A stretch of DNA of 45,838 bases, from NCBI GenBank assembly GCA_014143165.1, contig GCA_014143165.1_4843.1; one strand, 5' to 3'. The DNA comes from a phage. The stretch's first letter is position 1. Each line of letters begins with the position of its first letter. A model generated the notes under the pieces. The model ran no database searches, was not told where the DNA came from, and was given only the letters and a program-made list of their open reading frames with translations. The translations under genes were made by a program, and so were the position numbers. This document shows positions 803 to 42,311 of this stretch, in pieces.

Positions 803-4603
<3,801 letters not shown>

Positions 4604-4604
<1 letters not shown>

Positions 4605-6979
4605 TATTCGGTTGCTCTCCTGTTGGCGTTGTAGTTCCTACCGATGCTTTGCCCTATAGGTCCGTTGTTCTCAATATCACTCACAATCGTCTCAATTGTC
4701 ACGCTGCCGTCACCATTATCTCTGGCGCTGCTGCTAACCTGCGCTGAGCTGTTGTTGATGACGTTATTATAAACCACAACGCCACTGCTACCTCCGGTAA
4801 GGTCTTTATTGCTGATTACTGAACCATCGTTGCCTGGAATCATATACTGGCGACCGTTGGATGCCTGGAATATTTCTGGTGCGTTTCCCTCGCCCACTTC
4901 GTACATACTTCCGGCGCTAACAGGGCCACCATTTTTTCGCTTGCCAGCAATACCCATTGCCAGTGCGCCGAGAACGGCACCTACACCAATTGCAGCCGCG
5001 CCACCGAATGAGCCGATTGATGCCACGATTGCCGCTGGAGTCCATGCCGCCGTGGTGGTTGCTGCTGCCGCCGTTGATGCTGCTGTTGTGGTTGCCAGCC
5101 CTGCTGTTTGCGCTGCTGTGGTGGTAGCTGTTGCCGCAACCTGCGCAGTCTGCCCCATAACGGCGGATTTAACCCACTGAACTCCCATTTCAACAAAGCT
5201 GTTTACCAGAGAATTCAGCACCGTAGAGCCGAGGCTGCGCATTGCATCCTGAACGCTCATTGTGCCTGTGAGCAATCCAGTGATGCTGTTTGATGCTGTG
5301 CTCATCGCTGAATCAAGCGCCGTGCCGAACAATTGCGCCCCGAGGCTTTGCTGCTGCCATTCAGCCCACATCGCATCCATTCTCTGCTGGCGATACTGCG
5401 CTTCAATTGCTGCGCGAGTCTGCTCAATCTCCGTTATTTTCTGCGGATATGCTGCGGCGTAGGCGTCAAGGTCAGCCATGCGTTGCTGGTATTCGCTATC
5501 AATGCCAGTCGTTGGAGACGCAATGGCACGCAATCCCTGATATGATTTTTCTACGCGCTGCTTTTCCTTCTCCGCCGCCGCCTGTTCCTTCAGTGCGCTT
5601 TTCTGGTCCCAAATCTTCGCAGCGTACTCGCCAGCCAGTTTTATTTGCTCCTGAGTGGCAGCTTTGCCAAGCGATTGTTGCGCGTTGAGGATGGCTTGCT
5701 CGCGGGATAGTTCGCTGGTAGATGTTGCATTTAGCATGGTTTGCTGGCGTAATTTCTCCAGCTTTTCAGCTACTGATTCAGCTTGTCGTTCTTCGGCGCT
5801 TTTGCCCTTTCCTTTTCCTTTTTTGTCTTTTGTTGGTGCTTGTGCAATCTTCAGGTGTTTTGTTGCTTCAGCCTGTTTCTTTGTCTGCTCGTAACCTTCT
5901 GCTGATGCCTTGACGAATCGCTCGACCTGATCGTTATATTGTTTTTGCTTCTCAATATCATCATCACCAAAAAGCGCATCGACTCCCATCTGCGCCCATG
6001 CGCCCGGGTTTAGCTTAGAAATGACAGTGGCGAGAGATAAAATCTTATCGCTTGTGCTGGTTGATTTGTCGCCGAGGAAATCAATGTATTTTGCCAGCTG
6101 GTCGATAATCTCTACTGCTGTTTTTGATGCACCAGTGGCATCGTTAACGGCAACCACAAGTTTGGAGAATGAAACTTCAAGAGAACCAACAGCCTGATCC
6201 ATTGTGCGAGGAAGTTTTTCAAACTCAGCATTGACCACGCTTGTCCTGTCCTGAATGGCATTTAGCGCATCTTCTGCTGTCAGTTTGCCATCGAGCATTC
6301 TGGCGCGAAGTTCACCCATTGAAATACCAAGACCCGCCGCAATCTGGCGAGCAAGCTCAGGCATCTGCTCAAGGATGGAGTTAAATTCTTCGGCGCGGAT
6401 TGTACCAGAAGCAATTGACTGACCGAACTGACGCAGGGCGTTCGCCATTTCTTCTGTTGATGACCCGCCGATTCGACCTATTTTTTGCAGGGTATCGGTA
6501 AGGTTCAGAACCTGCGCATTTGTCGCGCCAGCCTCCTTCAGTGATGACGTTAATGTTTCCCACAACTTCGTAGTGTCACTGAGGCTTGCGCCAGTGGTTG
6601 AGGCGATATTTGCCAGTGAACTGAATGTTTCGTTCGCGGTTTTCGCATCAGTTGATAATCGAGCAATCCTTGCCTGAAGCTGAGTCATGTTATCGGCAAC
6701 CTCAAGGAATCGCTTTCCCCATTCGATAATCAGTGACACGGATATTGCGCCAGCAAGAGCTGTCATCTGCGTTTTTAGCCCTGAAGCTGCGCCGCCAGCA
6801 TTCTTCATCCCACTGCCAGCATTTCTGGCGTTTTTATCCAGCTTGCCAAGCGCGCTTGTGGTTTTGTTGGTTGATGATTCAAGGTCATCTAAAGTCTTAT
6901 TGGCTGTTGTCGCACCAGCTTTCAGGCCTTTAACATCCATCCCGACTTCATAGACAATTCCGCCGACTTCTTCAGCCAT
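4604..6979 (-). CDS. tail tape measure protein
   Basis: 791 aa, coiled-coil-rich with Ala/Gly/Thr-rich hydrophobic segment near the C-terminus; flanked by chaperone and minor tail genes. Confidence 0.85.
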
Positions 6980-7695: not shown

Positions 7696-7735
7696 CCTGA
7701 ATTTGACTGATGTTGATTATATCATCTCAGTGGTG

Positions 7736-7764
7736 TTGACACCTGTGAGGTGGTGATGTAGATT
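7736..7764 (+). promoter_or_regulatory. sigma70-type promoter (TTGACA-17 bp-TAGATT)
   Basis: TTGACA at 7736-7741, 17-bp spacer, TAGATT at 7759-7764; a GAGG RBS and ATG follow. Confidence 0.5.
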
Positions 7765-7787
7765 CAAGTCATCGAAACGAGGTATGA

Positions 7788-7994
7788 ATGAGGTTAGCTA
7801 TGGACGTTGTTATTTTGTTGTTTTTTGTTGGCTTGGTGATATTTGCGTACCTTCTGCCATCTTTTGTGGCCCTGCAACGCAAGCACGTAAACACGACTGC
7901 AATCTGCGTACTGAATATTCTTGTCGGATGGAGCTTTATTGGATGGGTTGCGGCACTGGTTTGGGCATTGGTTAAAAGTGGCGACAAGAAATGA
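7788..7994 (+). CDS. superinfection-immunity-like small membrane protein
   Basis: Product ...LPSFVALQRKHVNTTAICVLNILVGWSFIGWVAALVWALVK matches the hydrophobic GW..IGW..AL.WAL pattern of Imm-type superinfection immunity proteins; own promoter; antisense to tail genes. Confidence 0.55.
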   Translation: MRLAMDVVILLFFVGLVIFAYLLPSFVALQRKHVNTTAICVLNILVGWSFIGWVAALVWALVKSGDKK

Positions 7995-8133
7995 ACGAGC
8001 AAACAAAAGCAGACCTGATTTTCTACACTGAACTGTATGTTGATGCAGGTTACGACTATGAAGAAGCTGAACGCATGGCGAAAGACTTACTCCGCGTGAT
8101 TGGTGTTATTTTTGATGAGGACAAGGTGATATG
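7991..8133 (+). CDS. hypothetical small protein (47 aa)
   Basis: ATG overlaps the upstream stop (ATGA); not in the supplied ORF track (below 60 aa). Confidence 0.3.
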
Positions 8134-8331
8134 AGCCAGTGGATTAAGTGTGGTGAGATGCTTCCTGGCGATGGGTATACGGATAAGGAGTTCCTGGTGT
8201 ATGAAATGTTGAATAACGCAGTTCAGCATGATTATTACATCGTTCCTGATGATGGTAGAAAGCCATTCTGGAATCACTATGGTAAGTACGTGACTCACTG
8301 GATGCCACTACCAGAGCCACCACAAGAATAA
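8131..8331 (+). CDS. DUF551-like phage protein
   Basis: C-terminal ...YVTHWMPLPEPPQE as in DUF551 proteins; last gene of the small plus-strand unit. Confidence 0.5.
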   Translation: MSQWIKCGEMLPGDGYTDKEFLVYEMLNNAVQHDYYIVPDDGRKPFWNHYGKYVTHWMPLPEPPQE

Positions 8332-8335
8332 AACA

Positions 8336-8362
8336 AAGCCCCTTTCGGGGCTTTTTCTTTAT
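8336..8362 (+). terminator. rho-independent terminator
   Basis: GCCCC-TTTC-GGGGC hairpin followed by TTTTTCTTT. Confidence 0.6.
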
Positions 8363-9078
8363 CAGGATACGGTGCAAGCCGTGCTCAGGATAACTTCAGG
8401 GTCAGTAGATGAATCAGTTACCGTAACGGTATACACGCCAGCAGTTGGGCTTGCCAGTGATGCGCCAGATTCGCCGCCAACAACCGCGCCATCTTTGCGC
8501 CATACATAAGTGTAAGGTGTAACGCCACCCTCAACAGCAACAGTTAACGGGCTGCCAGTGCTGCCAGTTGATTGCAGGTCGGTGGTGAATGCCAGAGGTT
8601 CAAGGCTTTCAATTGACACCGTATCGCCGTCGTAAGGCTTGAACTCAACGGAACCGGTGACAATATCGTTTGTTCCACCTTCCCATGACAACCCGGTGAT
8701 GTTGCAGTACGCGGTGGTGATGGTGCTGCCAGTGACTTGACGAACCCACAGAGACGGTTGCCTGCGCGCACTCATCTCAGTGGTGAACATCTGGATTAGT
8801 TTATGAATACCATACTCGTCTGATTTATCATTTTTTTTAATTTCAAAATCACCGCTGATAGTCATGTCCGCTGTTGTCACCAGAGTGGCGACGAAGCCGC
8901 TATTGGTATCAGCTTCACTTGATGTGGTATTAGGGCTGAAATCAACCCCGTTATTGGTGAGTGAGCCAAAATACTTCCAATCTTCCTGTGACGGTTCTGC
9001 ATCTGAGCACCCGTCAGCAAGGAAGATTCGCATCATTCTTCCCACCAGAATTCCGTTGTTATTTGCACAAATAGCCAT
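8362..9078 (-). CDS. major tail protein with C-terminal Ig-like domain
   Basis: 238 aa; C-terminal ...TVAVEGGVTPYTYVWRKDGAVVGG...GVYTVTVTD is Ig-like (Big_2-type); sits upstream of chaperone and tape measure. Confidence 0.65.
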   Translation of the reverse strand: MAICANNNGILVGRMMRIFLADGCSDAEPSQEDWKYFGSLTNNGVDFSPNTTSSEADTNSGFVATLVTTADMTISGDFEIKKNDKSDEYGIHKLIQMFTTEMSARRQPSLWVRQVTGSTITTAYCNITGLSWEGGTNDIVTGSVEFKPYDGDTVSIESLEPLAFTTDLQSTGSTGSPLTVAVEGGVTPYTYVWRKDGAVVGGESGASLASPTAGVYTVTVTDSSTDPEVILSTACTVS

Positions 9079-9129
9079 TTCGATCTCCGAATTGTGTTAG
9101 CTGCTAACGTGGTGATTATATCACAGGTG

Positions 9130-9158
9130 TTGACAGTGATTATTTTGTGGTGTAGATT
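9130..9158 (+). promoter_or_regulatory. sigma70-type promoter (TTGACA-17 bp-TAGATT)
   Basis: TTGACA 9130-9135, 17-bp spacer, TAGATT 9153-9158; same architecture as the 7736 promoter. Confidence 0.5.
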
Positions 9159-9165
9159 AAAGTCT

Positions 9166-9612
9166 ACTTAAGATATGAATTGATTTATGCGTGAGTTTTC
9201 AACTTTCTGAAAGGAAGGTGACCAAAATGAATGAAATCTCAATTTGAAGAGGTCAAAATAATTAGCGGTCGAGAGACGCCGGACGCGTAACCGGCACACA
9301 ACAGGTAAGAGCATTGGTGTACCAGAAGCCCGTGGGTTATGGCTAAGGAGTCCCAAGTGAGCGCATAAGTGCTCTTTCCGTTGTGGTGAATGCGCAGGCT
9401 GATGCGCGAAAGACATTGCAGCTATTGCGGAAAAGAGCTGTTCGGCGGGGCAATTAAACGCCCGTGAGAGTCTGAAATAACCGCAAGCCGGAGATCAGCA
9501 CCGGCCACCACAACACTTAATATCCAGCATTATCGCAATCATATGTAGGGGTATGTATGGGTTACGGGGCTGGATATTAAGAAAGCACGCTGGCAATGCT
9601 TAAACCAGTAAT
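9166..9612 (+). ncRNA. candidate structured non-coding RNA (about 450 nt, unknown class)
   Basis: Promoter-to-terminator interval with no plus-strand ORF over 25 codons and no RBS-ATG pair; perfect 13-bp inverted repeat CTTAATATCCAGC (9516-9528) / GCTGGATATTAAG (9569-9581) plus several short GC stems. Confidence 0.3.
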
Positions 9613-9641
9613 AAGGCCGCCAAGTGCGGCTTTATTTATTT
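9613..9641 (+). terminator. rho-independent terminator
   Basis: GCCGC-CAAGT-GCGGC hairpin followed by TTTATTTATTT. Confidence 0.55.
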
Positions 9642-10010
9642 AACAACCCGCAAAAGCAACTCATGCACAGGTCTTTTTTCTTCCGTCAGCATTGGCCTAC
9701 CGAGCGGAGCCTGCAACTGGATGTAGTTCACGCACAAATCAATCGGATGCGTCTTGATGTATTCGATAATCTCATTGGCTTTAGCGTCAACATCCGACAC
9801 GTTATACTGTCCATGTTTGCCGACAACGTACAGCGAGAAATAAAAGTCACCACCAAGTCCATCCATCACCTGCGTGCCGCCGTTGGATTGCAGGACAATA
9901 AATTGCTCGTTGCCATTTTCGGTGTCATTCCAGAACTGCAATTGCGAAGTCCAGCCATCATACAATCCAGCATCCTGAAGATATGCATCAACCAGCTCAA
10001 GCATATTCAT
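9636..10010 (-). CDS. putative tail completion / tail terminator protein
   Basis: 124-aa ORF between the gp10-like connector gene and the major tail gene; call by position. Confidence 0.35.
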   Translation of the reverse strand: MNMLELVDAYLQDAGLYDGWTSQLQFWNDTENGNEQFIVLQSNGGTQVMDGLGGDFYFSLYVVGKHGQYNVSDVDAKANEIIEYIKTHPIDLCVNYIQLQAPLGRPMLTEEKRPVHELLLRVVK

Positions 10011-10471
10011 TAGAGTGTCATCTCCTTCTTAATTACGCTATCAACAAGGTCTTTTGTGCGCTGCGCCGCTTTGGTCAGGAATTGTGGTTCACCACCCGGC
10101 GACCAGTATGTGCCATTTCCGTTGCTGCGTGGTTTACCTGCAAGTTTGCCACTGGCGCTATGAACGTACAGCGCATATTTTGCAGAGTAGCCAACTTTGC
10201 CAGTGATTCGCGTTCCGCTAACTTCCACAGTATCAAACTGACTGTTAATCAGCGTCGATGTATCAATTGGCGTTAGCGTGGCTGATTCGGTGCGGATGAT
10301 GTATGTCGCCGATTTCATAGCACGCACAGCTTTCGTGGCAATTATCTCACCCACAATCTGCGATGTTCTGGCGATGGCTTCGTTAATACCTTTGAGTTTT
10401 GCTGGCATGTTAGCACCACTCCATCCATCCAAAGCATTTTTTGTATGCCCCACCACAGGATAAATCATCAC
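10010..10471 (-). CDS. head-tail connector protein (HK97 gp10-like)
   Basis: 153 aa; ...KYALYVHSASG...PQFLTKAAQ resembles the HK97 gp10 family signature; synteny. Confidence 0.5.
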   Translation of the reverse strand: MMIYPVVGHTKNALDGWSGANMPAKLKGINEAIARTSQIVGEIIATKAVRAMKSATYIIRTESATLTPIDTSTLINSQFDTVEVSGTRITGKVGYSAKYALYVHSASGKLAGKPRSNGNGTYWSPGGEPQFLTKAAQRTKDLVDSVIKKEMTL

Positions 10472-10606
10472 TTTTTCTTGTGGCCTTGGATGCCTTTCTT
10501 TTCCAGTACCTGCCAGATGGTTTTACATACGCACTAAACCAGATTCTTGAGCCTGATTTGTTTCTGCTCTGTTTGTGGTTCTTGAGCTTTAATTTTTCAT
10601 CTTTCA

Positions 10607-10954
10607 TTATGTAATCAACGCAAAGTCAGGTGGCTCAGCGCGATTGAACGTATTGCCGTAATTAATCACATTCAGAATCTGGTTTGCGCCAGCCACCAGC
10701 GGGTCAGCTTCTGTCACCGTGCCAATCATGATGTAATCACCTACCTTAGCGCCAGTGTATTCTGTCCAGAAAGTATTCTTCTGCACAATCTCATTGCCTT
10801 TCGCGTCAGTCGATACATCATCGTTAAAGCCATAATCGCACATGATGCTCACTGGCGCATCAAAAGTCGGCTTGCCGTACTTGTCAGTTCCGCTTTTGTG
10901 CCAGATGGTGCATGGTTGCGTATAGCTCCAGTTAGCCAGCGAGGTCATTTGCAC
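10607..10954 (-). CDS. putative head-tail adaptor / head closure protein
   Basis: 115-aa ORF in the connector region; position only. Confidence 0.3.
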   Translation of the reverse strand: MQMTSLANWSYTQPCTIWHKSGTDKYGKPTFDAPVSIMCDYGFNDDVSTDAKGNEIVQKNTFWTEYTGAKVGDYIMIGTVTEADPLVAGANQILNVINYGNTFNRAEPPDFALIT

Positions 10955-11373
10955 TTACTCCCACGCACAACCGCAAACCACGGTTTACCGCTTCCGTCAG
11001 GGTCTTCCACTAAATCGCCAGTGCATCCGGCTGTATCCAGTAGTTTCATCTGATTGTACAACGCCACCCACGGCTTACTGCCATACGCGAATGATTGTGA
11101 AGCTCCAGATGGTGCGCTCTGACTGGTAACGTAGCGACCGGCGGTATTTGCGCTAATCAGGATGGAAGCCCACAGCATGATCGCATTTTGTCGGCACTCA
11201 TCATTTGGATAGTTCAGTTCAAGGCATTCGCTGATTGACGCCACAAGGCACAGAATGCCAGATGCATCTGTTGTGGTGATAGTCATTCCGCGCGATGCCA
11301 TCTGACTAACCAGTTCTTCAGGTGTTGGTGCTGTCATTTCTTTTTGACTCCCGGACTTTCCACCATATCTCAA
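10945..11373 (-). CDS. hypothetical structural-module protein
   Basis: 142-aa ORF; start uncertain. Confidence 0.3.
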   Translation of the reverse strand: MRYGGKSGSQKEMTAPTPEELVSQMASRGMTITTTDASGILCLVASISECLELNYPNDECRQNAIMLWASILISANTAGRYVTSQSAPSGASQSFAYGSKPWVALYNQMKLLDTAGCTGDLVEDPDGSGKPWFAVVRGSKCK

Positions 11374-11602
11374 ACAGATTCTTTATTACCAGAGACAGAG
11401 CGCCGAGGATTGACGCCACTGCCGCCAACTCCGTCAGGCTGTGTGGAATCATAGCTTCAAAATAAGACTGCGCGACAGGTGTTTGCTCTGCAACCTTCAG
11501 GCCAATGCCAGTGCCAATAGAAGCATAGCCGGCCTTATCAATCACCTGCCCCGTCGTCCCGCTTATAACTTGCTCTGCGACCTGTCTTAGTGTTTCGTTC
11601 AT
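11318..11602 (-). CDS. hypothetical protein with hydrophobic C-terminal segment
   Basis: 94-aa ORF; C-terminal LTELAAVASILGALSLVIKNLFEIWW is membrane-like. Confidence 0.3.
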   Translation of the reverse strand: MNETLRQVAEQVISGTTGQVIDKAGYASIGTGIGLKVAEQTPVAQSYFEAMIPHSLTELAAVASILGALSLVIKNLFEIWWKVRESKRNDSTNT

Positions 11603-11634
11603 TGCGAGTATCGCTGATGATATGTTTCCAGTGG

Positions 11635-12075
11635 TTATAGATTTGAATCAGCGAAAAAACGATAGCAACCACGCCAAGAATAATGTCCAATTTCGCCGGC
11701 CCATTTAAAAGTGATGGAAAGGATGAACAGATGGATGCCGATAATAATAAATGCGTACTGCGCATGAAGCGGCGTTTCTACAGGCGTGATAAATTCCCAT
11801 ACGAATGACTCTATCGCAACCAGCCATTCGTAAAGGCTCATCGTCAGCACGCAGAGCGCCATTTTTGTACTTTTGCGCAGCGCAATAGCCGGAAACAACC
11901 AGACCATAGACTGTGCAAGGTAATACAGATATTCGGCGGGAAATGAATCAACAAGCACCCATCCAAGATACACAGACATCGCCATTGCCGGAATGAACAC
12001 CAGAAACGCAACCATGCCCGTGCAGGCGAACCCCAGCACATACATGATCATGATGGCAATGTCTGCGCCGAACAT
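11635..12075 (-). CDS. polytopic membrane protein (unknown function)
   Basis: 146 aa with about four hydrophobic helices; preceded by a 39-aa basic ORF at 12079..12195 with GGAG RBS. Confidence 0.4.
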   Translation of the reverse strand: MFGADIAIMIMYVLGFACTGMVAFLVFIPAMAMSVYLGWVLVDSFPAEYLYYLAQSMVWLFPAIALRKSTKMALCVLTMSLYEWLVAIESFVWEFITPVETPLHAQYAFIIIGIHLFILSITFKWAGEIGHYSWRGCYRFFADSNL

Positions 12076-12241
12076 TATTTTTTACCGCGCGATGGTGAGC
12101 GGGCAGAGCCGTTTGGTTTCACTGCGCCAGTTTTGCCGCCAGTTTTGGTATTGCCAGTAGCGCGAGAACGAGACGGACCGTTTGTTGAACCCATGTTCAA
12201 ATCTCCTGTTGTTTGATTAGCATGATTTTAGCATATTCCTG

Positions 12242-12270
12242 TTGACGTAGATTGACGTAGCGTTTATAGT
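12242..12270 (+). promoter_or_regulatory. sigma70-type promoter (TTGACG-17 bp-TATAGT) with tandem TTGACGTAGA
   Basis: TTGACG at 12242-12247 and 12252-12257; TATAGT at 12265-12270; drives the plus-strand ParB/MTase/clamp unit. Confidence 0.45.
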
Positions 12271-12311
12271 TGTTGATGTAGAAACAGCAATAAATGTTAG
12301 AGGTGATGAAA

Positions 12312-12485
12312 ATGGAAGGTGAAACAGAAGTTTTTGCTGTTGATGTTTTTTATCAAGCATCAGACGAAGGCATTCCAGCTCACTGGTGCTGCCAGTTTAT
12401 TCGCGATGGATGGACTGGTTATGAATATTTTGATAACTCAGAAGATGCATATAACTATGCTTACTCACATGGATTTCAAGGATAA
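12312..12485 (+). CDS. hypothetical small protein
   Basis: GAGGTGA RBS 5 nt upstream of ATG 12312; first gene of the operon. Confidence 0.4.
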   Translation: MEGETEVFAVDVFYQASDEGIPAHWCCQFIRDGWTGYEYFDNSEDAYNYAYSHGFQG

Positions 12486-12488
12486 ACA

Positions 12489-13298
12489 ATGAAAACACTC
12501 AGCAAAATATATTCAGACAAAGAAACGCGCAACGGCATCGCTGTTAACAAAACCTATCTCGTGCCAGTTGAGCAAATCTATCTGGAACCGGGCTACAACA
12601 TCCGTGAAGCAGATGAGCAGCATGTGGAATATTTCGCGCAGTGCTGGGAATCAGGTCAGCCACTGCCAGCATTAACAGTTATTCCTGACGAGAAGGGAAT
12701 CCGCATTCTTAATGGTCAGCATCGCTATCTCGGCGAATTGCGTGCCATTGAGCGTGGCGCGCCAATCGTTCGCATTGAGTGTAATGATTTTACAGGAGAC
12801 GAAGCAGATAAAATCGCCTTCATGGTGTCATCCAGTCAGGGTAAGCAGCTCGACCCGTTTGAGCGCGCAAAGGCTTACACGAGACTGAAAGGTTTTGGCT
12901 GGACGAATGAAGAAATCGCCAAAAAGGTAGGCCGCTCAGTATCTGATGTGCAAATGCATCTGTCACTGGGTGATGTTCCAGCGGAAGTGAAAGCGCGCAT
13001 CAGTGCAGGACAAATCAGCTATGCAAATGCCGTAGCGGTAACGCGCGAGCATGGTGATGATGCGGCTAAAGTTATCGACGAGGCAGTCGAAGAGGCCAAA
13101 GCACAAGGCAAAGACAAGGTCACAGCGAAAGTACTGAAGGCGAAAAAGATTAAGCCAGTAGACCGCCTGATTGAGTTATTGAAGCCAGCCGACCATGTGA
13201 TTCTCCCCGCTGGTCATGTGGTGGCAGAGGATGAGGAATTTATCCAGATTCCTGTCGCAGACATTCACGAGGTTATGGCAATTCTGGAGAAGATGTGA
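12489..13298 (+). CDS. ParB-like N-terminal-domain (ParB/Srx fold) DNA-binding protein
   Basis: N-terminal ...VPVEQIYLEPGYNIRE... and ...LNGQHRYLGELRA (ParB GERRxRA-box-like), followed by HTH-like WTNEEIAKKVGRSVSDVQMHLSL. Confidence 0.65.
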   Translation: MKTLSKIYSDKETRNGIAVNKTYLVPVEQIYLEPGYNIREADEQHVEYFAQCWESGQPLPALTVIPDEKGIRILNGQHRYLGELRAIERGAPIVRIECNDFTGDEADKIAFMVSSSQGKQLDPFERAKAYTRLKGFGWTNEEIAKKVGRSVSDVQMHLSLGDVPAEVKARISAGQISYANAVAVTREHGDDAAKVIDEAVEEAKAQGKDKVTAKVLKAKKIKPVDRLIELLKPADHVILPAGHVVAEDEEFIQIPVADIHEVMAILEKM

Positions 13299-14095
13299 TG
13301 ATAGTCCACTACTACAATGAGTGGGACAAGGGCGCAGCGGCATGGCTGCGCGAATTAATTAACAATAAACTAATTCCTTACGGATATGTCGATGAGCGAT
13401 CAATTACCGAAGTCACCCCTTCAGACCTGGAAGGATTTACACAATGTCACTTCTTTGCCGGAATCGGAGGGTGGCCCCTTGCACTCCAGCTGGCAGGAAT
13501 ACCAGAGAGCACTCGACTCTGGACAGGATCACCACCTTGCCAGCCGTTTAGCGTTGCCGGTCAGTCTCGCGGATTTGATGACGAACGACACCTTGCCCCT
13601 GTATTTCTCCGGCTCATCAGAGAGTGCAAACCTGAATTGCTATTTGGAGAGCAGGTTGCGGCAGCAATTGCAAAGCACTGGCTCGACTTTGTATTCCTTA
13701 ACCTGGAAGAAAAAGGCTACACCTGCGGGGCGGCAGTATTGCCAGCTTGCAGCGTCGGCTCTCCACAGGAAAGGAAAAGAACCATCTTTGGCGCGAGGAT
13801 GGGCGACACCAACAGCGCGAGGATGGAAGGATTATGGGAATCTCAGCAAGTCATTTTACAGAAAGGACGGAAAATTCAGGAACGATACTCTTTATCGCCA
13901 GATGTGGCTTCATGTTTATGGGATTCATGGAAACCCAAACATGGAGCAGATAAAGAAACTAGAGTCATACCAGGCGGATTTTGCGAGGCAACTCATGGGG
14001 TATCCGCAAGAGTGGGACGACTGCGCGGTTATGGCAATGCCATAGTTCCACAAGTCGCAGCAGAATTCATTAAAGCATTCATGAGGTCCGTTTAA
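13295..14095 (+). CDS. compact DNA (cytosine-5)-methyltransferase
   Basis: Motif I FFAGIGGW, motif IV GSPPCQPFSVAGQ, motif VI LLFGEQV, motif VIII GSPQERKRTIFGA, motif X GYGNAIVPQVAAEFIKAF. A second open frame (13386..14045) carries a motif-IX-like FARQLMGYPQEW (see findings). Confidence 0.7.
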   Translation: MMIVHYYNEWDKGAAAWLRELINNKLIPYGYVDERSITEVTPSDLEGFTQCHFFAGIGGWPLALQLAGIPESTRLWTGSPPCQPFSVAGQSRGFDDERHLAPVFLRLIRECKPELLFGEQVAAAIAKHWLDFVFLNLEEKGYTCGAAVLPACSVGSPQERKRTIFGARMGDTNSARMEGLWESQQVILQKGRKIQERYSLSPDVASCLWDSWKPKHGADKETRVIPGGFCEATHGVSARVGRLRGYGNAIVPQVAAEFIKAFMRSV

Positions 14096-14268
14096 TGACA
14101 CCAGAACAATTCATCGAAAAACAACTACGCGCCAAACTGCCGGACATCGACCAGATGGCAATTGATGCGGCAATTCAGTATTACAAGCGCAATCAGAGCG
14201 AAAAGAAGGGTGGCATTTTTGAAGAGTGCCTGAAGGTTGCAAAACAACACATGATTAAGGTGAAGTGA
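14095..14268 (+). CDS. hypothetical small protein (57 aa)
   Basis: ATG overlaps the MTase stop (TAATG); ends TGATG overlapping the next start. Confidence 0.3.
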   Translation: MTPEQFIEKQLRAKLPDIDQMAIDAAIQYYKRNQSEKKGGIFEECLKVAKQHMIKVK

Positions 14269-14807
14269 TGAAACTAAAAATCAGCAAATTATTACTTGAA
14301 TCAGCATTAATATTTCAGGCTCGCAACGATGTGCGGTATTACCTGAATGGAATCTGCTTCATGCCTGATGGTCGCATTGCATCAACTGACGGTCATCGCG
14401 CATTTATTGGTGGCAACCATGACAATACGCTGACAGAAAATGTGATTATCAAGATTGGCAAGTCACCAACAAAGCGCTATGACTACGCCATCATTGATAC
14501 CAAAGCGAAAATTGCAACGTATCATGATGAAGCTGGTGTGATGGTTGGCACTGGTATCTGCGAAGAGATTGACGGACGATTCCCGGATATTGACCGCATC
14601 ATTCCGAAGCAGATCTCGCCAACAGAGGAAATTGGCTTCAATGCTGGCTATCTTGTTGATGTCGAGAAAGCTGCGAAGCTATTTAACCCTAGATTATGTG
14701 GAGTTAAGTTTGAATTGAATGGAAATACAAATGCCGCAGTTTGCTGCCTTAGTGCGCCAACTGGCGAAACTGCGAAGATTGTTGTTATGCCGATGAGGAT
14801 TTATTAA
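14268..14807 (+). CDS. truncated DNA polymerase III beta sliding clamp homolog (DnaN domain II plus C-terminal strand)
   Basis: NDVRYYLNGICF...STDGHRA matches DnaN QDVRYYLNGMLFE...ATDGHRLA; DGRFPDIDRIIP matches DGRFPDYRRVLP; EIGFNAGYLVDV matches EIGFNVSYVLDV; C-terminal KIVVMPMRIY matches DnaN's YVVMPMRL. Only about 180 aa versus about 366 for DnaN. Confidence 0.7.
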   Translation: MKLKISKLLLESALIFQARNDVRYYLNGICFMPDGRIASTDGHRAFIGGNHDNTLTENVIIKIGKSPTKRYDYAIIDTKAKIATYHDEAGVMVGTGICEEIDGRFPDIDRIIPKQISPTEEIGFNAGYLVDVEKAAKLFNPRLCGVKFELNGNTNAAVCCLSAPTGETAKIVVMPMRIY

Positions 14808-15088
14808 TGAGTGAAGAGATGAAGCCATGCAGGCTTTGCGGAGTTAAGCAAAGCGGCGTCGATGAACATAATAATGAATACGAAAAACTTGTCAGCCTTG
14901 TTCTTCGTTCTGGAGACGAAAGAGAACTGCTTGAGTTGATTGACCTGATGAGAGGCAAAATAATAACGTCGGTAACAACATCAATTGGTAGCAGTAAGTT
15001 GGCATATGAAAGCCGCGAACTTTATCATGTTCAAGTCATGCATGACGCAATATCTTTACTGCGTGAAAAGCTAATTTCCAGACAGTAA
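14807..15088 (+). CDS. hypothetical protein
   Basis: 93-aa ORF, start overlaps the upstream stop; last gene before the terminator. Confidence 0.4.
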   Translation: MSEEMKPCRLCGVKQSGVDEHNNEYEKLVSLVLRSGDERELLELIDLMRGKIITSVTTSIGSSKLAYESRELYHVQVMHDAISLLREKLISRQ

Positions 15089-15092
15089 ACCA

Positions 15093-15120
15093 AAGCCCCT
15101 TTACGGGGCTTTTCTTTTAT
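15093..15120 (+). terminator. rho-independent terminator
   Basis: GCCCC-TTTA-CGGGGC hairpin plus TTTTCTTTTAT; nearly identical to the terminator at 8336-8362. Confidence 0.6.
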
Positions 15121-15980
15121 CACGCCAGATAAGTATCATCCTCAAACCACGAGACATACGCATTGATATTCTGCACCGCAGTATCCAGTGATGTTATGCG
15201 AAGCAAATACGTCGTATTTGGTGCCATGATAATCTGCTCGCCGAGTTTCGCCTGCGAGTTACCCTGACCCTGATTCGATGCGTTGCCCTCACTGTACGTC
15301 GCCGCCACCGTCAGCTGCCCAATACTTGTGATTGTAGAGCCAGTCAGAAGCTGCGCCGTAGCTGCCTGCGGCGTTATGTCGTTTGGGTTGTTAATCTCTG
15401 CCGCCGTACCGCCAGTGGCAACCGCGCCGCGATAGATTGATGCAACAACACCTTTCCCCGTATAACCAATAATGCGCTGGTTGAATATCACCTGCTTTGT
15501 TCCGGTGATAAAGATGCTGTCAAGGTTTGAGCTGCCAGCGACATCAGTTACTCTGCGCGACGCAGTGAACAGCTTGCCTTGCTTATTGGCGCGTTCAATA
15601 TATGACTGCGTGGTGATGTCGCTTAGCGCAACATCTGGCTGAAGGTTTACCACCGATTGCGGAGACACGCCAGCTCGCCACGCCGAAACGCGCAGCGAGT
15701 TTACTGCCGCTGGCAATTCAGTTTTGATTATCTTCAGGCGCAGCGCTACGCCGTAATAATTATTATTGTTGACGTCAATCCAGTAGTTGCCAGACTCAAA
15801 TGGCGACACCTTCACGGACACGGTTCCGCTCACCAACGGCGTGTATGCGCCAGATGAATTAAGCGGCATCACGTTAACCTGTAGCGCAGTCCAGTCAGCG
15901 GACATCAGCTCGTCAAGCGTCACCTCGCCGTCATCCCGCGTGGTGAATATGTCGTATCTTACAGCCATAGAAACCCCCAA
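15120..15980 (-). CDS. putative virion structural protein (unknown role)
   Basis: 286-aa Thr/Ser/Gly-rich ORF between the capsid gene and the connector genes. Confidence 0.35.
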   Translation of the reverse strand: MGVSMAVRYDIFTTRDDGEVTLDELMSADWTALQVNVMPLNSSGAYTPLVSGTVSVKVSPFESGNYWIDVNNNNYYGVALRLKIIKTELPAAVNSLRVSAWRAGVSPQSVVNLQPDVALSDITTQSYIERANKQGKLFTASRRVTDVAGSSNLDSIFITGTKQVIFNQRIIGYTGKGVVASIYRGAVATGGTAAEINNPNDITPQAATAQLLTGSTITSIGQLTVAATYSEGNASNQGQGNSQAKLGEQIIMAPNTTYLLRITSLDTAVQNINAYVSWFEDDTYLA

Positions 15981-16004
15981 TAAAAAACCCGCATAATGCG
16001 GGTT
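15978..16004 (-). terminator. rho-independent terminator (minus strand)
   Basis: AACCCGC-ATTAT-GCGGGTT hairpin followed by a T-run on the minus strand, downstream of the capsid gene and a small ORF. Confidence 0.5.
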
Positions 16005-16008
16005 CAGT

Positions 16009-16206
16009 TTACTCTGCTTTCTTTTTCTTTGTCGTCTTTTCTTGCGGGGTTGCGACTTCGAAAGACTTTTCCAGTTCTGGCATAACGCGCAGCTTTGACA
16101 TCAGATGATCAGCAGGCTCCGTGATAACCTCGCCAAGCTGTAACTCACGAATCTTGCCTTTCTCTTTCACAAAGATTCCTCGTGCGATGACTTCGTATTT
16201 AGCCAT
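16009..16206 (-). CDS. hypothetical small protein
   Basis: 65-aa ORF immediately downstream of the major capsid gene. Confidence 0.35.
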   Translation of the reverse strand: MAKYEVIARGIFVKEKGKIRELQLGEVITEPADHLMSKLRVMPELEKSFEVATPQEKTTKKKKAE

Positions 16207-19112: not shown

Positions 19113-20510
19113 ATGCCGAAGAAGATGACTATTGATGAGCTCAAAGAAAAGATTCGTAGCGTTCATGGCGAGACGTATGAGTATGATTTTCATACCTTCC
19201 ATGGCTGCCACTCACCAATGAAAATAGTATGCAAAAAGCATGGGGAATTCTGGCAAAAGCCATCCAAACACCTTCATGGTCAGGGGTGTGCAAAGTGCCA
19301 AAGGGGCGTTATTTCTGTCGATGACTTCAAATCAATGGCCTCCGCTATTCATGACGGGAAATATGACTATAGCAAGGTTTTTTTTGAAGCGTTTTCAAGG
19401 GCAAAGATAACAATCGGATGCCCGATTCATGGGTGGTTTGAGCAATTGGCCTACATTCATCTGAAGAGGGGTAATGGATGCCCAAGGTGTGGAGATGAGA
19501 GATCGAGAAAAGCCAAGTTAAAAAAGTTCAGCAATTTTGTTGATGATGCGAAATACGTCCATGGTGATAAGTATGAGTATTCCCCGAATGGTTTTACTGG
19601 TTCTCGAGGCAAGATTAATATCTTATGTCCTACACATGGTGAGTTTACTCAAGGTGCCGCAAATCACCTGGCTGGTAATGGGTGCCCATCGTGCGCAAGA
19701 GTGATGTCAAACATAGAAGCCGATATCCTTGCATTTGTTAAGTCACTGGACCCACATGTGATCAGCAGGGATAGAGCAACGATAGCACCATATGAACTGG
19801 ATATAGTCTCAAGAGCAAAATCATTAGCCATAGAGGTAAACGGCACATACTGGCACTCGGAGAGGGCTGGGAAAGATAGGTTATATCACAAAATGAAAAG
19901 AGAGATGGTTGAAGAATCTGGGATGAGATTGATAAGCATAAGAAGTGATATATGGAGAGATAAGCGCGAATTAGTAGAGGAAATAATAATTAATGCCATG
20001 GGGGCATCTGAGAGCAGGAAGGTTGACGCAAGAAAGTGCACCATTAAAGATGTATCACCATCTGAATCAAGGGCTTTTCTTGATAGATACCATGTTATGG
20101 GAGGGAGGAATGCCAGTAGGCACTTCGGTTTATTTTGTGGCGGTGAACTGGTATCTGTTATGTCATTTACAGTAAGGAAAGGTTCTGTTGAGTTAGTTAG
20201 ATTCGCATCTAAATGCAATGTTCGTGGTGGGTTAACAAAGATGCTAAAACACTGCTCATCAGTTGTTGGTTTTGATAAGTGTTTCAGCTATGTAGACCTT
20301 GATTTGTTTACCGGTAAATCATACCTCTTAGCTGGCTTTAAAGCTGTAAGCATAAAACCCGGATTCGCGATTGTTAACGGAAATCATGTGGAATCAAGGC
20401 AAAAGTGGAATAAGGCACCTAATGGCATGACTCAGAGCGAATGGTACGAATCTGAAGGCGTAAGCAGGATATGGGATAGCGGACAAATGAGAATAGAGTG
20501 GAGTAAATAG
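19113..20510 (+). CDS. endonuclease-like protein: three tandem zinc-ribbon repeats, PD-(D/E)xK (Vsr-like) core, unknown C-terminal domain
   Basis: Three repeats of C-x2-HG-x-F-x-Q...HL-x-G-x-GCP-x-C; nuclease-like YELDIV...LAIEVNGTYWHSE; about 140-aa C-terminal domain of unknown fold; inserted antisense between structural genes. Confidence 0.55.
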   Translation: MPKKMTIDELKEKIRSVHGETYEYDFHTFHGCHSPMKIVCKKHGEFWQKPSKHLHGQGCAKCQRGVISVDDFKSMASAIHDGKYDYSKVFFEAFSRAKITIGCPIHGWFEQLAYIHLKRGNGCPRCGDERSRKAKLKKFSNFVDDAKYVHGDKYEYSPNGFTGSRGKINILCPTHGEFTQGAANHLAGNGCPSCARVMSNIEADILAFVKSLDPHVISRDRATIAPYELDIVSRAKSLAIEVNGTYWHSERAGKDRLYHKMKREMVEESGMRLISIRSDIWRDKRELVEEIIINAMGASESRKVDARKCTIKDVSPSESRAFLDRYHVMGGRNASRHFGLFCGGELVSVMSFTVRKGSVELVRFASKCNVRGGLTKMLKHCSSVVGFDKCFSYVDLDLFTGKSYLLAGFKAVSIKPGFAIVNGNHVESRQKWNKAPNGMTQSEWYESEGVSRIWDSGQMRIEWSK

Positions 20511-20518
20511 AAAGTAAA

Positions 20519-20543
20519 AGGTGTCATTTGACACCTTTTTTTG
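20519..20543 (+). terminator. rho-independent terminator
   Basis: GGTGTC-ATTTG-ACACC hairpin followed by TTTTTTT. Confidence 0.5.
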
Positions 20544-22858: not shown

Positions 22859-22958
22859 TTCCACATCACCTTTTCCGTTGTGGTACAATCTACGTCAATA
22901 AGTATTGACTAAATGATGTAGATTGGTCAACAATAATTTCCGAAAAGGAGTAGTAAAT

Positions 22959-24221: not shown

Positions 24222-24351
24222 ACCACCAAAACCATCGGCATGGTGCGAGGAAATGGAACGCAATGCGAAAGATGGCGATGAGGCGTATGTTTATTTCCAG
24301 CTAAAGTAGATGTGGAAACAGAGAGAAAACTCAGAGCAAGCCAATTAAACA

Positions 24352-24378
24352 CAAGCCCCGTCATGGGGCTTTTTTTCA
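24352..24378 (+). terminator. rho-independent terminator
   Basis: CCCC-GTCAT-GGGG hairpin followed by TTTTTTT. Confidence 0.55.
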
Positions 24379-24717
24379 TCCCTTAAACCTTATCCAGCCG
24401 AACATCCTGACACCAAGCCACATAACGCCAGCTCTCAGTGATGAAACACCACTATCCTTTAATGCCTGCCTGAAGCAATCATCAGCAAAATGCCTGTCTG
24501 AATGGGTGGCGTACAGATAGTCATGAACGGCTGAGGCTTTCTGACCAACGTCACCAATAGAAGCGAACAGGTAAGGAAGCCTCGGGCCACTGGCAAAATC
24601 AGTGCGAAATCCTGCTGGAACTTTTATTTCCTGATTCCTGAACTCATAGATTAATGGCTCCATTAGCGTCCACGTTGAGTTTTTGTTCAGCTTGACGATA
24701 AGGTCGGATTTGAACAT
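24376..24717 (-). CDS. DUF1353-like phage protein
   Basis: ...KVPAGFRTDFASGPR...AVHDYLY matches the DUF1353 signature. Confidence 0.55.
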   Translation of the reverse strand: MFKSDLIVKLNKNSTWTLMEPLIYEFRNQEIKVPAGFRTDFASGPRLPYLFASIGDVGQKASAVHDYLYATHSDRHFADDCFRQALKDSGVSSLRAGVMWLGVRMFGWIRFKG

Positions 24718-25906: not shown

Positions 25907-25937
25907 TTGACGTAGATTGAGTGGTGGTGCATAGTAT
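25907..25937 (+). promoter_or_regulatory. sigma70-type promoter with TTGACGTAGATTG element
   Basis: TTGACG 25907-25912 followed by TAGATTG; TAGTAT about 19 bp downstream; precedes the plus-strand unit 25968-27369. Confidence 0.45.
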
Positions 25938-40035: not shown

Positions 40036-40066
40036 AAAAAGCCCGCAAACGCGGGCTTTATTATTT
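40036..40066 (+). terminator. rho-independent terminator
   Basis: GCCCGC-AAAC-GCGGGC hairpin followed by TTTATTATTT. Confidence 0.6.
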
Positions 40067-40303: not shown

Positions 40304-40437
40304 GTGTTTACCTCTGCTATCTGTATGCAGCAATAATGAACTCAAAAAAAATTTTCGTCAAGGTATTGCGTTTACCATCACGTTGACGTATCTTTAAGTC
40401 ACACCAGCGATATGCTGAGTTAAATCGAGAGGACACT

Positions 40438-41280: not shown

Positions 41281-41728
41281 TGAACTGCTGGCGATGGAGG
41301 ATATTCCACGAGAGCAGATTGAAGATACTATAAACCTTATTGAAGAGGAGTTTGAAGGAAAGGCTGAAATGGTTGCTGCTTACATTCGTGAGCTTGAAGC
41401 TGATGAGGCCGGACTGAATTCTGAGATTGACCGACTTTCTGAGCGTAAGCGTGTTTTAGTTTCGAAGATTGATAATCTTAAGGATTATCTTCGTCAGAAC
41501 ATGATGGCTTCAGGAAAGACGAACATCAAAGGTAAGTTGTTCAGTATCACGCTTGGCAAACCATCACCAGTTCTTGATGTGTTTGTTCCTGTTGAGCAGC
41601 TTCCTGAGCAGTACCGTGTTGTGAAAGTGTCGGCAGATAACGCAGCGATTAAAAATGCGATTAAAGCCGGGATTGAAATTAATGGTTGTGCCATCACCGA
41701 CGGCAAACCGAAACTGATCATCAAATAA
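41249..41728 (+). CDS. Gp157-like protein
   Basis: Coiled-coil N-terminus; position between the Sak4-like ATPase and DUF669 genes; start 41249 (track start 41234). Confidence 0.45.
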   Translation: MHLYEITKQLNELLAMEDIPREQIEDTINLIEEEFEGKAEMVAAYIRELEADEAGLNSEIDRLSERKRVLVSKIDNLKDYLRQNMMASGKTNIKGKLFSITLGKPSPVLDVFVPVEQLPEQYRVVKVSADNAAIKNAIKAGIEINGCAITDGKPKLIIK

Positions 41729-41744
41729 TCGAGAGGACACAAAA

Positions 41745-42266: not shown

Positions 42267-42287
42267 TGATTTGATGTTTGTTTAAAT

Positions 42288-42311
42288 GAAGCCCCGTTAA
42301 GGGGCTTTTAA
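42288..42311 (+). terminator. rho-independent terminator
   Basis: GCCCC-GTTAA-GGGGC hairpin followed by TTTTA. Confidence 0.5.

Follow-up and report, generated by a model that had tools for sequence, protein, structure and literature searches.

Layout of the two cassettes

The window, by which we mean the whole 45,838-nucleotide stretch of DNA that was analysed, comes from a Skate/Shuimu/Buchananvirus-like enterobacterial siphophage, a group that we take from its description to be virulent. The strand of the genes is tracked by flips in GC skew, and because the skew switches with gene strand, the + strand open reading frames resemble genuine genes. Two + strand cassettes end at convergent junctions, each of which contains a hairpin, T1 or T2.

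7736..8331, + strand: cassette 1, antisense within the - strand tail gene cluster
7736-7764, + strand: candidate sigma70-like promoter of cassette 1 (TTGACA-N17-TAGATT)
7788-7994, + strand: Imm-like membrane protein gene, cassette 1
7991-8134, + strand: 47-aa ORF, cassette 1
8131-8331, + strand: DUF551 protein gene, cassette 1; its TAA opens the T1 unit
8329..8364, no single strand: T1, predicted bidirectional intrinsic terminator between the DUF551 TAA (+) and the major tail protein TGA (-)
8362..9078, - strand: major tail protein gene, with T1 at its 3' end
12242..15088, + strand: cassette 2, closed by T2
12242-12270, + strand: sigma70-like, promoter-like site of cassette 2
12294-12485, + strand: 63-aa ORF, first gene of cassette 2
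12489-13298, + strand: ParB/KorB-HTH protein gene, cassette 2, conserved in all relatives
13295-14095, + strand: C5 DNA methyltransferase gene, cassette 2, variable between relatives
14095-14268, + strand: 57-aa ORF, cassette 2
14265-14807, + strand: RusA-like/clamp-like protein gene, cassette 2, conserved in relatives
14807-15088, + strand: 93-aa ORF, last gene of cassette 2; its TAA opens the T2 unit
15086..15122, no single strand: T2, predicted bidirectional intrinsic terminator between the TAA of the 93-aa gene (+) and the p286 TGA (-)
15120..15968 (ORF 15120-15980), - strand: p286, late-strand accessory gene (phrog_5335); probable ATG at 15968, giving 282 aa
15985..16005, - strand: terminator AACCCGC-ATTAT-GCGGGTT upstream of p286, with CAATAAAAA on its left shoulder

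The cassette 1 genes were named with the help of the IME207 and Sa179lw annotations, the latter also serving for the start-region genes described below. GC content is 43.9% in cassette 1 versus about 49% in its neighbours, and 41.1% in the 93-aa gene and 38% in the first gene of cassette 2 versus 48-52% in the flanking structural genes; these differences are modest. The sites at 7736 and 12242 agree with the sigma70 consensus at 10 of 12 positions and are members of a repeated promoter family. Our promoter calls depend on the motif of this family (TTGAC-N17-GTAGATT); in a simple scan, promoter-like sites were not enriched over shuffles.

A sequence-only reading of this DNA had described near-identical terminators, sharing about 28 of 30 bases, that close two different accessory units. 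We confirm both points. Identity over the noted span is 29/31 plus one indel, and the TAAs end the + strand genes at 8131-8331 and 14807-15088. That reading emphasized the accessory units; the - strand partners at these junctions are the genes at 8362-9078 and 15120-15980, and the TCA in each unit is their TGA stop.

T1 and T2 as predicted terminators

T1 (8329-8364, TAAAACAAAGCCCCTTTCGGGGCTTTTTCTTTATCA) has its stem at 8335-8342/8347-8354 and the loop TTTC (GAAA on the - strand), and T2 (15086-15122, TAAACCAAAGCCCCTTTACGGGGCTTTTCTTTTATCA) has its stem at 15092-15099/15105-15112 and the loop TTTAC. Both have the same stop-to-stop geometry: TAA, 3 nt, AAAGCCCC, loop, GGGGCTTT, 7 nt, TCA. Each spans the entire 30-31-nt gap separating the convergent stop codons, which adjoin the hairpin with the same 3-nt and 7-nt spacers. 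In each 8-bp stem, 5 pairs are G-C; the loops measure 4-5 nt, and z lies between -2.6 and -3.8. Hairpin energies on the + and - strands are -13.4 and -17.4 kcal/mol for T1 and -13.6 and -15.0 kcal/mol for T2. The U-rich tracts 3' of the hairpin are TTTTTCTTT (+) and TTTGTTTTA (-) in T1 and TTTTCTTTT (+) and TTTGGTTTA (-) in T2. A hairpin, a U-tract on both strands and a place after convergent stops are all present, and T1 and T2 look like bidirectional Rho-independent terminators. From these features we infer termination, its bidirectionality and the early or late assignment of the adjoining units.

The stem AAGCCCC-loop-GGGGCTT is found at three of the six convergent junctions in the window. 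Same-stem hairpins number 4 in the window and 3 in Sa179lw, and the two others in the window lie elsewhere:

24346..24378, no single strand: T3 hairpin (AAGCCCC GTCAT GGGGCTT), at a convergent junction 3' of the - strand DUF1353 gene
24376-24717, - strand: DUF1353 gene, final gene of the lysis-module region
42289..42307, + strand: T4 hairpin (AAGCCCC GTTAA GGGGCTT), 3' of the SSB gene in a co-directional setting

T1 and T2 are more alike than the stem alone requires. Over the complete stop-to-stop unit, 33 of 37 aligned positions are identical, with one indel in the loop. Among 13 terminator-like hairpins in the window they are the top-scoring of 78 pairs, with a score of 25; the runner-up scores 19, and the pairs average 6.3 (sd 5.6). 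For the flanks, we compared identity to T1 over 10+10 nt with that of 246 unrelated viral terminators having the identical 8-bp stem. T2 agrees at 15 of 20 positions, versus 8.4±2.25 and a maximum of 13 in the null set; p is roughly 0.01 allowing for six same-stem pairs, with null contigs that are mixed in composition.

Much of this likeness could have arisen by convergence, with T1 and T2 independent and their similarity, flanks included, due to selection for an optimal two-way terminator between stops. The core of 20-22 nt, AAAGCCCC-loop-GGGGCTTT, follows a generic terminator design that is widespread in enterobacterial phages. The 20-nt core is present in at least 120 unrelated viral contigs, TTTC/GAAA being the most frequent loop, and matches with E<=1 were found in 1511 phage records, 427 of them spanning at least 80% of the 42-nt query. 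The 1511 records include T4-like and T1-like phages with similar junctions. For example, a Pseudotevenvirus and a Drexlerviridae phage, from unrelated families, have the identical 20-mer where a hypothetical gene and a structural gene converge. A search of 2.3 Gb gave an 88% match to T1 over 42 nt in an unrelated T4-like phage, so similarity of the T1-T2 level can arise without homology. Function also constrains what the flanks are made of, namely an A-rich side, a T-rich side and stop codons. Among relatives the T2 loops are quite diverse (same-stem loops range overall from 3 to 6 nt), which makes the near-identity of the loops in the window partly luck. However, the flank identity exceeds that of all 246 unrelated examples, the spacer geometry is identical, and 34-nt copies identical to T1 occur at other slots within the phage group; the T2 of one relative (L030), for instance, equals the T1 of the window at 34/34 positions. 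Convergence alone is a serious contender whose probability we judge to be somewhat less than even. The generic two-way design of an 8-bp stem with a short loop, shoulders rich in A on the left and in T on the right, and stops close by gives rise to most of the likeness. A generic consensus, which the sequence-only reading named as the alternative, largely accounts for the core, but the flanks exceed the generic level, and only modestly. This surplus would be compatible with shared ancestry within the phage group.

Conservation and exchange at the junctions

T1 is kept in 36/36 related loci, always between the DUF551 and major tail protein genes, and is 97-98% conserved, while its surroundings are less so (left flank 77%; right flank 86%, dropping to 65%). 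No exchange between genomes was seen at T1 across these 36 loci, and the boundary is not variable. Judged from these alignments, T1 is a fixed orthologous element under strong constraint. Cassette 1 is likewise present as a unit in 36/36 loci. Its cargo alone varies, and in relatives 609 to 1331 nt separate the promoter from the stop codon of the major tail protein gene. Cassette 2 occurs in all related loci covering its region, again with only the cargo varying: the ParB-like and RusA-like genes are conserved, and variation affects the methylase as well as the genes at either end of the cassette.

The T2 junction is hypervariable. Genes differ on both sides in relatives, and small + strand genes are replaced up to their final one or two codons. 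At least 8 upstream gene families are paired with several downstream contexts, and relatives have at least 12 left/right flank combinations. p286 was found in 12/36 related loci, and a T2-type terminator follows it in 12/12. Comparison with relatives shows p286+T2 to be an indel module between CAATAAAA repeats, which we read as the A-tract shoulder of the terminator. As the co-occurrence of T2 with p286 illustrates, T1 and T2 are elements of the - strand late genes no less than of the accessory units. The terminator at 15985-16005 is of the type found, as the ancestral-type junction terminator, in relatives without p286. Its + strand T-tract is intact (TTTTG/TTTTA) in 10/10 genomes with + strand transcription converging there and degraded (TTCAG/TTTAG) in 13/13 p286 loci (the window and 12 relatives). 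In p286 loci, T2 probably takes over from this terminator for the + strand, a covariation that indirectly supports the predicted termination.

Some relatives also carry genes at a third slot, located where the tape measure gene meets the next tail gene; in the window this slot is empty. The sequence-only reading had taken the reused boundaries as signs of modular acquisition or of recombination between cassettes. Modular acquisition holds for T2 and the third slot, where gain, loss and replacement in relatives fall exactly, and not for T1, where none was found. Recombination between cassettes is not borne out: among related loci, no cargo gene family was common to more than one slot, and nothing pointed to exchange or concerted evolution between T1 and T2. 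Mosaic joints are not confined to the terminators: nearly all gene boundaries show them, and the majority of these boundaries have no terminator.

It is conceivable that the terminator modules and the promoter family are short-homology recombination substrates that actively drive cassette exchange, with the Sak4, SSB, Gam-like and RusA-like proteins encoded by the phage as potential agents. Phage single-strand annealing proteins act in recombination between sequences that are short and diverged (PMC5499656), and there is precedent in T4-like phages for promoter/stem-loop motifs driving cassette exchange (PMC2839356, PMC4122927). All four combinations of TAAACC or CAATAAAA with p286 or a small gene were observed at T2. 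This four-gamete pattern puts the joints inside about 25-30 nt, the sole shared sequence. Similarly, unrelated cargo genes at T2 have the last codon plus TAAACC in common, the p286+T2 indel is bounded by repeats, and three different genes in the third slot are closed by the same hairpin. However, joints at nearly all gene boundaries, mostly terminator-free, are what one would expect if joining were random and selection then kept genomes whose genes are intact. The absence of shared cargo between slots, the lack of any exchange at T1, the low number of copies (3-4 per genome) and the lack of a promoter inside the module also argue against active linkers, which we regard as rather unlikely.

Start region, proposed roles and known systems

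The second repeat lies ahead of two genes for DNA-handling proteins.

40423..40436, + strand: start-region copy A, AATCGAGAGGACAC, in the spacer before the Sak4-like gene
40438-41280, + strand: Sak4-like AAA_24 annealase gene, preceded by copy A
41234-41728, + strand: Gp157/Gam-like gene, 5' of copy B
41727..41740, + strand: start-region copy B, AATCGAGAGGACAC, in the spacer from the Gp157/Gam-like gene to the DUF669 SSB gene
41745-42266, + strand: DUF669 SSB gene, preceded by copy B

The string previously noted before the starts at 40438 and 41745 is indeed repeated: ATCGAGAGGACAC is at 40424-40436 and 41728-41740 and extends to the 14-mer AATCGAGAGGACAC. A bare 14-mer repeat is unremarkable in the window (19 exact pairs versus 6.6 expected), but as a pair of gene-upstream regions the repeat is exceptional. 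In the annotated relative Sa179lw, the upstream regions of the Sak4-like and SSB genes have an exact 16-mer in common; when the upstream regions of its 86 genes were column-shuffled 200 times, the longest common word averaged 10.3±1.0 and never exceeded 14. The motif is exclusive to these two genes, with no other GAGAGGA on either strand of the window. Both copies are kept in 17 relatives, including those with nucleotide identity as low as about 74-78%. No gene gain, gene loss or cassette polymorphism was found there in these 17 relatives, which speaks against the repeat as a cassette boundary.

A Shine-Dalgarno GAGG, 5 nt from the ATG at 40438 and 8 nt from the ATG at 41745, is conserved in the 17 relatives. 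A matched ribosome-binding region, serving two partner genes, is the better interpretation of the repeat. AATCGAGAGGACAC would be held identical at both sites, probably matching translation of the Sak4-like annealase and SSB. Cognate SSB is known to stimulate Sak4 activity (PMC5928155). The start-region sequence TCGAGAGGACA includes GAGG and bases outside it; the conserved region is 11-12 nt (11-16 nt at both sites across diverged relatives), longer than the 4 nt that GAGG needs, so matched translation may not explain everything.

One broader idea is that the 30-nt module TAAA(A/C)CAAAGCCCC-loop-GGGGCTTTT and the TTGAC-N17-GTAGATT promoters are crossover points for the phage's own Sak4/SSB/Gam-like/RusA-like proteins, the Sak4 and SSB start regions co-regulating this machinery. 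We consider this unlikely. If true, the Skate/Shuimu/Buchananvirus-like siphophages would have an equivalent of the T4 PeSL system, and the mosaicism noted in this group would be explained. The start-region repeat might instead be a translational operator through which a phage regulator co-represses the Sak4-like and SSB genes, for which T4 RegA and gp32 autoregulation are models. The extent of conservation in diverged relatives, the restriction to these two genes and the fact that one product is an ssDNA/RNA-binding protein would fit. However, there are two sites only, no candidate repressor was identified, spacing to the ATG is unequal, and a good ribosome-binding site in a slowly evolving operon could be all that lies behind the conservation; an operator seems quite improbable. 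Last, it is extremely improbable that the 20-bp palindromes are operator- or parS-like sites for the cassette 2 ParB/KorB-HTH protein, besides or instead of terminators: they are near-perfect, present in 3-4 copies per genome and accompanied by this conserved protein, but the palindrome is common in unrelated phage families, loops of 3 to 6 nt would alter half-site spacing, and all copies are at expected terminator positions.

We favour, with good confidence, a reading in which T1 and T2 are two-way terminators with separate histories, p286+T2 is an indel module, and AATCGAGAGGACAC is a shared ribosome-binding region. On the + strand, T1 and T2 would end early-type cassettes driven by the sigma70-like promoters at 7736 and 12242. 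On the - strand, T1 would end the major tail protein gene and T2 would end p286, late structural or accessory genes. They would stop convergent transcription from reaching the opposite unit antisense, and probably also define the 3' ends of abundant late mRNAs. T1, T2 and the start repeat are ordinary elements, and T2 marks a gene-swapping spot among related phages.

Like morons (Juhala et al. 2000; PMC3594210), the cassettes are small gene units between structural genes, antisense in this case, with a candidate promoter and a predicted terminator of their own and with GC below that of their neighbours. A superinfection-immunity-like membrane protein is among the cargo, and the third slot is filled in some genomes only. 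Unlike morons, the cassette 1 unit is in every related locus and cassette 2 holds conserved core early genes; presence and absence are seen only for the p286+T2 module and the third slot. Because the group is described as virulent, a moron-type, prophage-expressed benefit to the host does not apply.

The PeSLs of T4-like phages are composites of a promoter and a stem-loop, about 50 per genome, clustered in hyperplastic regions (PMC2839356, PMC4122927). As here, stem-loops with G/C runs are repeated at the borders of variable genes and coincide with indel or replacement joints; they end transcription and shield late virion genes from early transcription, as T1 and T2 would. In contrast, promoter and terminator lie at opposite cassette ends here, copies number four in the window and three in Sa179lw, and no mini-circles are known. 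No promoter hexamers occur within the 30-31 nt of T1 or T2; the candidate promoters are 0.6-2.9 kb off, at the far end of each cassette. Joints coincide with the motif at T2 and the third slot, not at T1, and occur also at motif-free boundaries.

Boundary sequences of lambdoid phages, as far as they are described in PMC11769527 (citing Clark et al. 2001), are likewise short conserved intergenic sequences between exchangeable modules. Here the conserved sequence has an evident predicted role of its own as a terminator, so its conservation need not reflect recombination. Finally, T1 and T2 resemble bidirectional Rho-independent terminators in their GC-rich 8-bp stem, 4-5-nt loop, A-tract upstream, T-tract downstream and position after both stops. 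They differ in nothing of kind; what is particular here is a 36-nt unit, known by its sequence, that is reused at several junctions in one phage group.

Putative two-way terminators and the units they end

The sequence-only reading had described two near-identical terminators, and an alignment of T1 (8329-8364) with T2 (15086-15122) bears this out: 33 of 37 aligned positions are identical, with one indel, in the loop. The unit common to both spans precisely the intergenic stretch from one convergent stop codon to the other, a geometry additional to that reading. It consists of the plus-strand TAA, 3 nt, AAAGCCCC, a loop of TTTC or TTTAC, GGGGCTTT, 7 nt and TCA, which is the TGA stop of the minus-strand gene. 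On either strand the sequence can fold into a hairpin of 8 bp with a U-tract behind it (-13.4 to -17.4 kcal/mol), and by sequence criteria T1 and T2 are predicted bidirectional intrinsic terminators. The same stem is found twice more in the window, at 24353 (a convergent junction) and at 42289 (after the SSB gene), and by our reading of the ORF map three of the six convergent junctions use it. The other strong hairpins, about nine, have different stems, and no other of the 78 hairpin pairs comes close to T1-T2 in similarity. We rejected a mobile palindromic element of the REP or MITE kind, since all copies occupy the exact space between the stop codons of orthologous junctions, and no repeats of the element's own flank them.

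Features on either side of T1 and T2
7736-8331, plus strand: cassette 1, antisense within the minus-strand tail genes, with a DUF6246 gene on one side and the major tail protein gene on the other; TTGACA-N17-TAGATT promoter-like site, Imm-like membrane protein, 47-aa ORF and DUF551 protein
12242-15088, plus strand: cassette 2; ParB/KorB-HTH protein, C5 methyltransferase, RusA-like/clamp-like protein and small ORFs
Right of T2, minus strand: p286 (phrog_5335, no function assigned)
15985-16005: second terminator, to the right of p286, then head genes

The terminators were thought to close two accessory units. Both plus-strand cassettes do end at them, but this is not their sole role: because p286 adjoins T2 and the major tail protein gene adjoins T1, they would end minus-strand late genes just as much.

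The major tail protein allele (8362-9078, minus strand) diverges from that of every relative found, with 73-78% amino-acid identity. Its nucleotide identity to relatives is 65-75% in the 5' two-thirds of the gene and about 90% in the flanking segments, and thus it looks like a swapped allele. A 465-aa ORF (19113-20539, plus strand) lies between the head genes and the next minus-strand block, and ends at a different perfect two-way hairpin (20516-20539). Its hits to DUF723 and to restriction-endonuclease-like and treble-clef zinc-finger entries are weak, and it could be an insertion of the homing-endonuclease type.

T1, T2 and a third slot among relatives

By megablast the window groups with enterobacterial siphophages of about 45-48 kb. 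Its relatives include IME207 (Shuimuvirus), Sa179lw (Buchananvirus), swi2, C1, Sf11, Skate, HC6 and Bas77-80, at about 88-92% identity across 60-88% of the query, with the alignment in many pieces. A subfamily, 'Skatevirinae', has been proposed for this cluster, and its extensive mosaicism has been pointed out (PMC11769527). We compared 36 related loci, namely IME207 (L001), HC6 (L002) and 34 IMG/VR loci (L003-L036) centred on the major tail protein gene, which are not all independent (L014 is the same as IME207, and several IMG/VR entries match GenBank isolates in size). The full annotated Sa179lw genome (L236) was also compared. The blastn comparison of loci covered the plus strand alone.

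A comparison with relatives for cassette gain or loss at the terminator boundaries had been proposed. At T1 neither is seen: T1 is present in 36 of 36 loci, at a constant offset from the stop of the major tail protein gene and always with a DUF551-family gene on its other side, and is thus not a site of gain or loss. It forms an island of conservation, with 97% identity versus 77% in the 60 nt to the left and 86% falling to 65% to the right, and on the minus strand its conserved loop is the GNRA tetraloop GAAA. The interior of cassette 1 varies: among relatives, its promoter lies anywhere from 609 to 1331 nt away from the stop codon of the major tail protein gene.

Gain and loss are evident at T2, where the junction is hypervariable. 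The 15985-type terminator (AACCCGC...GCGGGTT, window 15985-16012) directly follows the RusA-like gene in 10 loci, a AAAGCCCC hairpin takes its place in a few, and the order is RusA-like gene, T2, p286 in 6. The window and 8 related loci carry an extra small gene ahead of the hairpin, translationally coupled to the RusA-like gene; at least six unrelated families are represented among these genes, and two unrelated cargo families have the last codon and TAAACC in common. p286 occurs in 12 loci, each time followed by a T2-type hairpin, and the module of T2 and p286 has CAATAAAA(A) at both ends. All four combinations of two left and two right types exist, so the joints must fall within the hairpin region.

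The 15985-type hairpin itself changes with its neighbours, as seen in the window and at the equivalent sites of loci L003-L035. In all 10 genomes in which it faces cassette 2 without p286, its plus-strand T-tract is TTTTG or TTTTA; the tract is degraded (TTCAG or TTTAG) in all 13 p286-bearing loci (the window plus 12 relatives). In these p286 loci, T2 would shield the 15985-type hairpin from cassette 2 transcription. Because the T-tract covaries with gene content, it supports the reading of these hairpins as terminators.

A third slot is located where the tape measure gene (4604-6979) meets the next tail gene (4131-4604). It is empty in the window, at 4604, and is filled in six relatives (L007, L022, L031, L033, L034 and L036) by a plus-strand gene of 216, 313 or 60 aa that ends at the same AAAGCCCC hairpin.

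We also asked how far a generic terminator consensus alone accounts for the likeness of T1 and T2. For the core it largely does. AAAGCCCC-N3-6-GGGGCTTT occurs in at least 120 stretches of viral contigs, almost all unrelated, with TTTC/GAAA the commonest loop among the matches listed. A 42-nt T1 query hits 1511 phage records at E<=1, 427 of them with at least 80% query coverage. An identical 20-mer is present in Enterobacter phage EC-W1 (Straboviridae) and Escherichia phage JeanPiccard (Drexlerviridae), in both at the junction of a plus-strand hypothetical gene and a minus-strand structural gene. The flanks are another matter: T1 and T2 agree at 15 of 20 positions (10 nt on each side), versus 8.4±2.25 and a maximum of 13 for 246 unrelated examples with the same stem, or roughly p = 0.01 once the window's six pairs with this stem are allowed for. 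Flank likeness thus exceeds the generic level only modestly. Inside the phage group, copies matching T1 perfectly over 28-34 nt are found at other junctions (T2 of L030, third slot of L033 and L031).

Repeats at gene starts and promoter-like sites

A duplicated translation-initiation region was likewise confirmed: AATCGAGAGGACAC precedes the start codons at 40438 and 41745, filling the 15-16-nt spacers ahead of a Sak4-like AAA_24 gene and a DUF669 SSB gene, respectively. Taken as a bare 14-mer it is unremarkable in the window; it is exceptional when gene-upstream regions are compared. In Sa179lw this pair of genes has a 16-mer in common, and the longest shared word in shuffled gene-upstream regions is 10.3±1.0. 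No further copies beyond chance were found at up to 2 mismatches.

The idea that this repeat is a cassette boundary did not hold. The two copies bracket exactly the Sak4-like and Gam-like genes and are kept in 17 relatives, even where nucleotide identity is down to 74-78%, and in all 17 the gene order is unchanged and there is no insertion or deletion between them. Since the cognate SSB stimulates annealing by Sak4 (PMC5928155), a matched ribosome-binding region of two partner proteins would be the simplest explanation; a translational operator is possible but less likely.

The DNA for the C-terminal tail of the DUF669 SSB (42219-42272) matches many otherwise unrelated viral contigs and, in several relatives, a second place about 3 kb downstream, which suggests a common SSB-type C-terminal tip motif.

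A family of promoter-like sites, TTGAC(A/G)-N17-(T)GTAGATT, is also repeated in the window.

Promoter-family sites
7711-7782
9105-9165
12242-12270
22886-22926
25907-25935
36010-36038, minus strand

The sites at 7736 and 9130 both have an upstream palindrome, TGATTATATCA, and the leaders after 7764 and after 36010 (minus strand) are 89% identical over 28 nt. The family may represent early promoters or operators specific to the phage. The conserved site at 9130-9158 (plus strand) is followed by about 450 nt lacking a plus-strand ORF of at least 30 aa, a tRNA or an Rfam match (Rfam and tRNA scans gave zero matches across the window), and this stretch (region 9130-9640) stops at a terminator, 9616-9630. 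In relatives the slot measures 348-826 nt and holds a tRNA-Ile in HC6 and a 66-aa ORF in IME207. In 125 of 140 phage records its last ~100 nt show at least 95% identity; they are almost never annotated and form a hairpin with a 13-bp stem (9515-9527 with 9568-9580) and two compensatory pairs. This core (9508-9608) is a candidate for a small RNA of the phage or a cis element.

A second similar terminator pair, 9613-9649 and 40038-40074, reads AAGGCCGCC...GCGGCTTT and AAAGCCCGC...GCGGGCTTT. Its common right flank, TTTATT(T)ATTTAACAA(C/T)CC, includes the last codons of two unrelated minus-strand genes (9636-10010; 40061-40345, the Sa179lw homologue of which is annotated cro). We looked for paralogy of these genes, next to the hairpins at 9616 and 40038, and found none.

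Recombination and likeness to known elements

The reused boundary elements had been taken to suggest modular acquisition or recombination between cassettes. As judged from sequence comparison, the terminators lie at the borders of modules, and the T2 site is a joint. When the window is aligned with its relatives, homology breaks off at almost all gene boundaries, the majority of which lack a terminator, a spread that fits the general model of phage mosaicism. We think it unlikely that the terminators themselves promote recombination. The phage encodes Sak4-like, SSB, Gam-like and RusA-like proteins, which could serve such a process, and annealases of the Sak4-like kind recombine short diverged sequences (PMC5499656); however, the breakpoints lie mostly away from terminators and no cargo family is found in two slots. 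Shuffling of cargo between slots was rejected, as each family obtained by clustering the hairpin-adjacent genes was confined to a single slot. We likewise rejected gene conversion or concerted evolution of T1 and T2, since their loops are unmatched within genomes (TTCC and TCGC in L024, TTTT and TTTC in L030).

These results define a transcription-unit architecture, of value for annotation, for a large group of enterobacterial phages that are candidates for therapy: the late operons contain early-type cassettes in antisense orientation, each closed by a predicted two-way terminator. The slots at which accessory genes are exchanged are also located, and could be useful landing sites for engineering: one follows the RusA-like gene, and others are around p286, between the tape measure and next tail gene, and within cassette 1. 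The swi2 paper mentions neither terminators, promoters nor mosaicism, and the KlebP_265 paper notes mosaicism, not regulatory boundaries. The terminators and start-region elements are of kinds already known and are of low to modest interest; we found no published description of them in this phage group.

The cassettes resemble morons, small gene units with their own promoter and terminator; unlike morons, they are not polymorphic for presence or absence as units. As in the promoter-early stem-loop cassettes (PeSLs) of T4-like phages, the terminators lie at the borders of variable genes. PeSLs are defined by a composite promoter/stem-loop architecture and by copy number, neither of which the elements of the window share (PMC2839356). 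If the terminators were truly preferred crossover sites, the PeSL idea would reach past the T4-like phages; otherwise they are ordinary elements.
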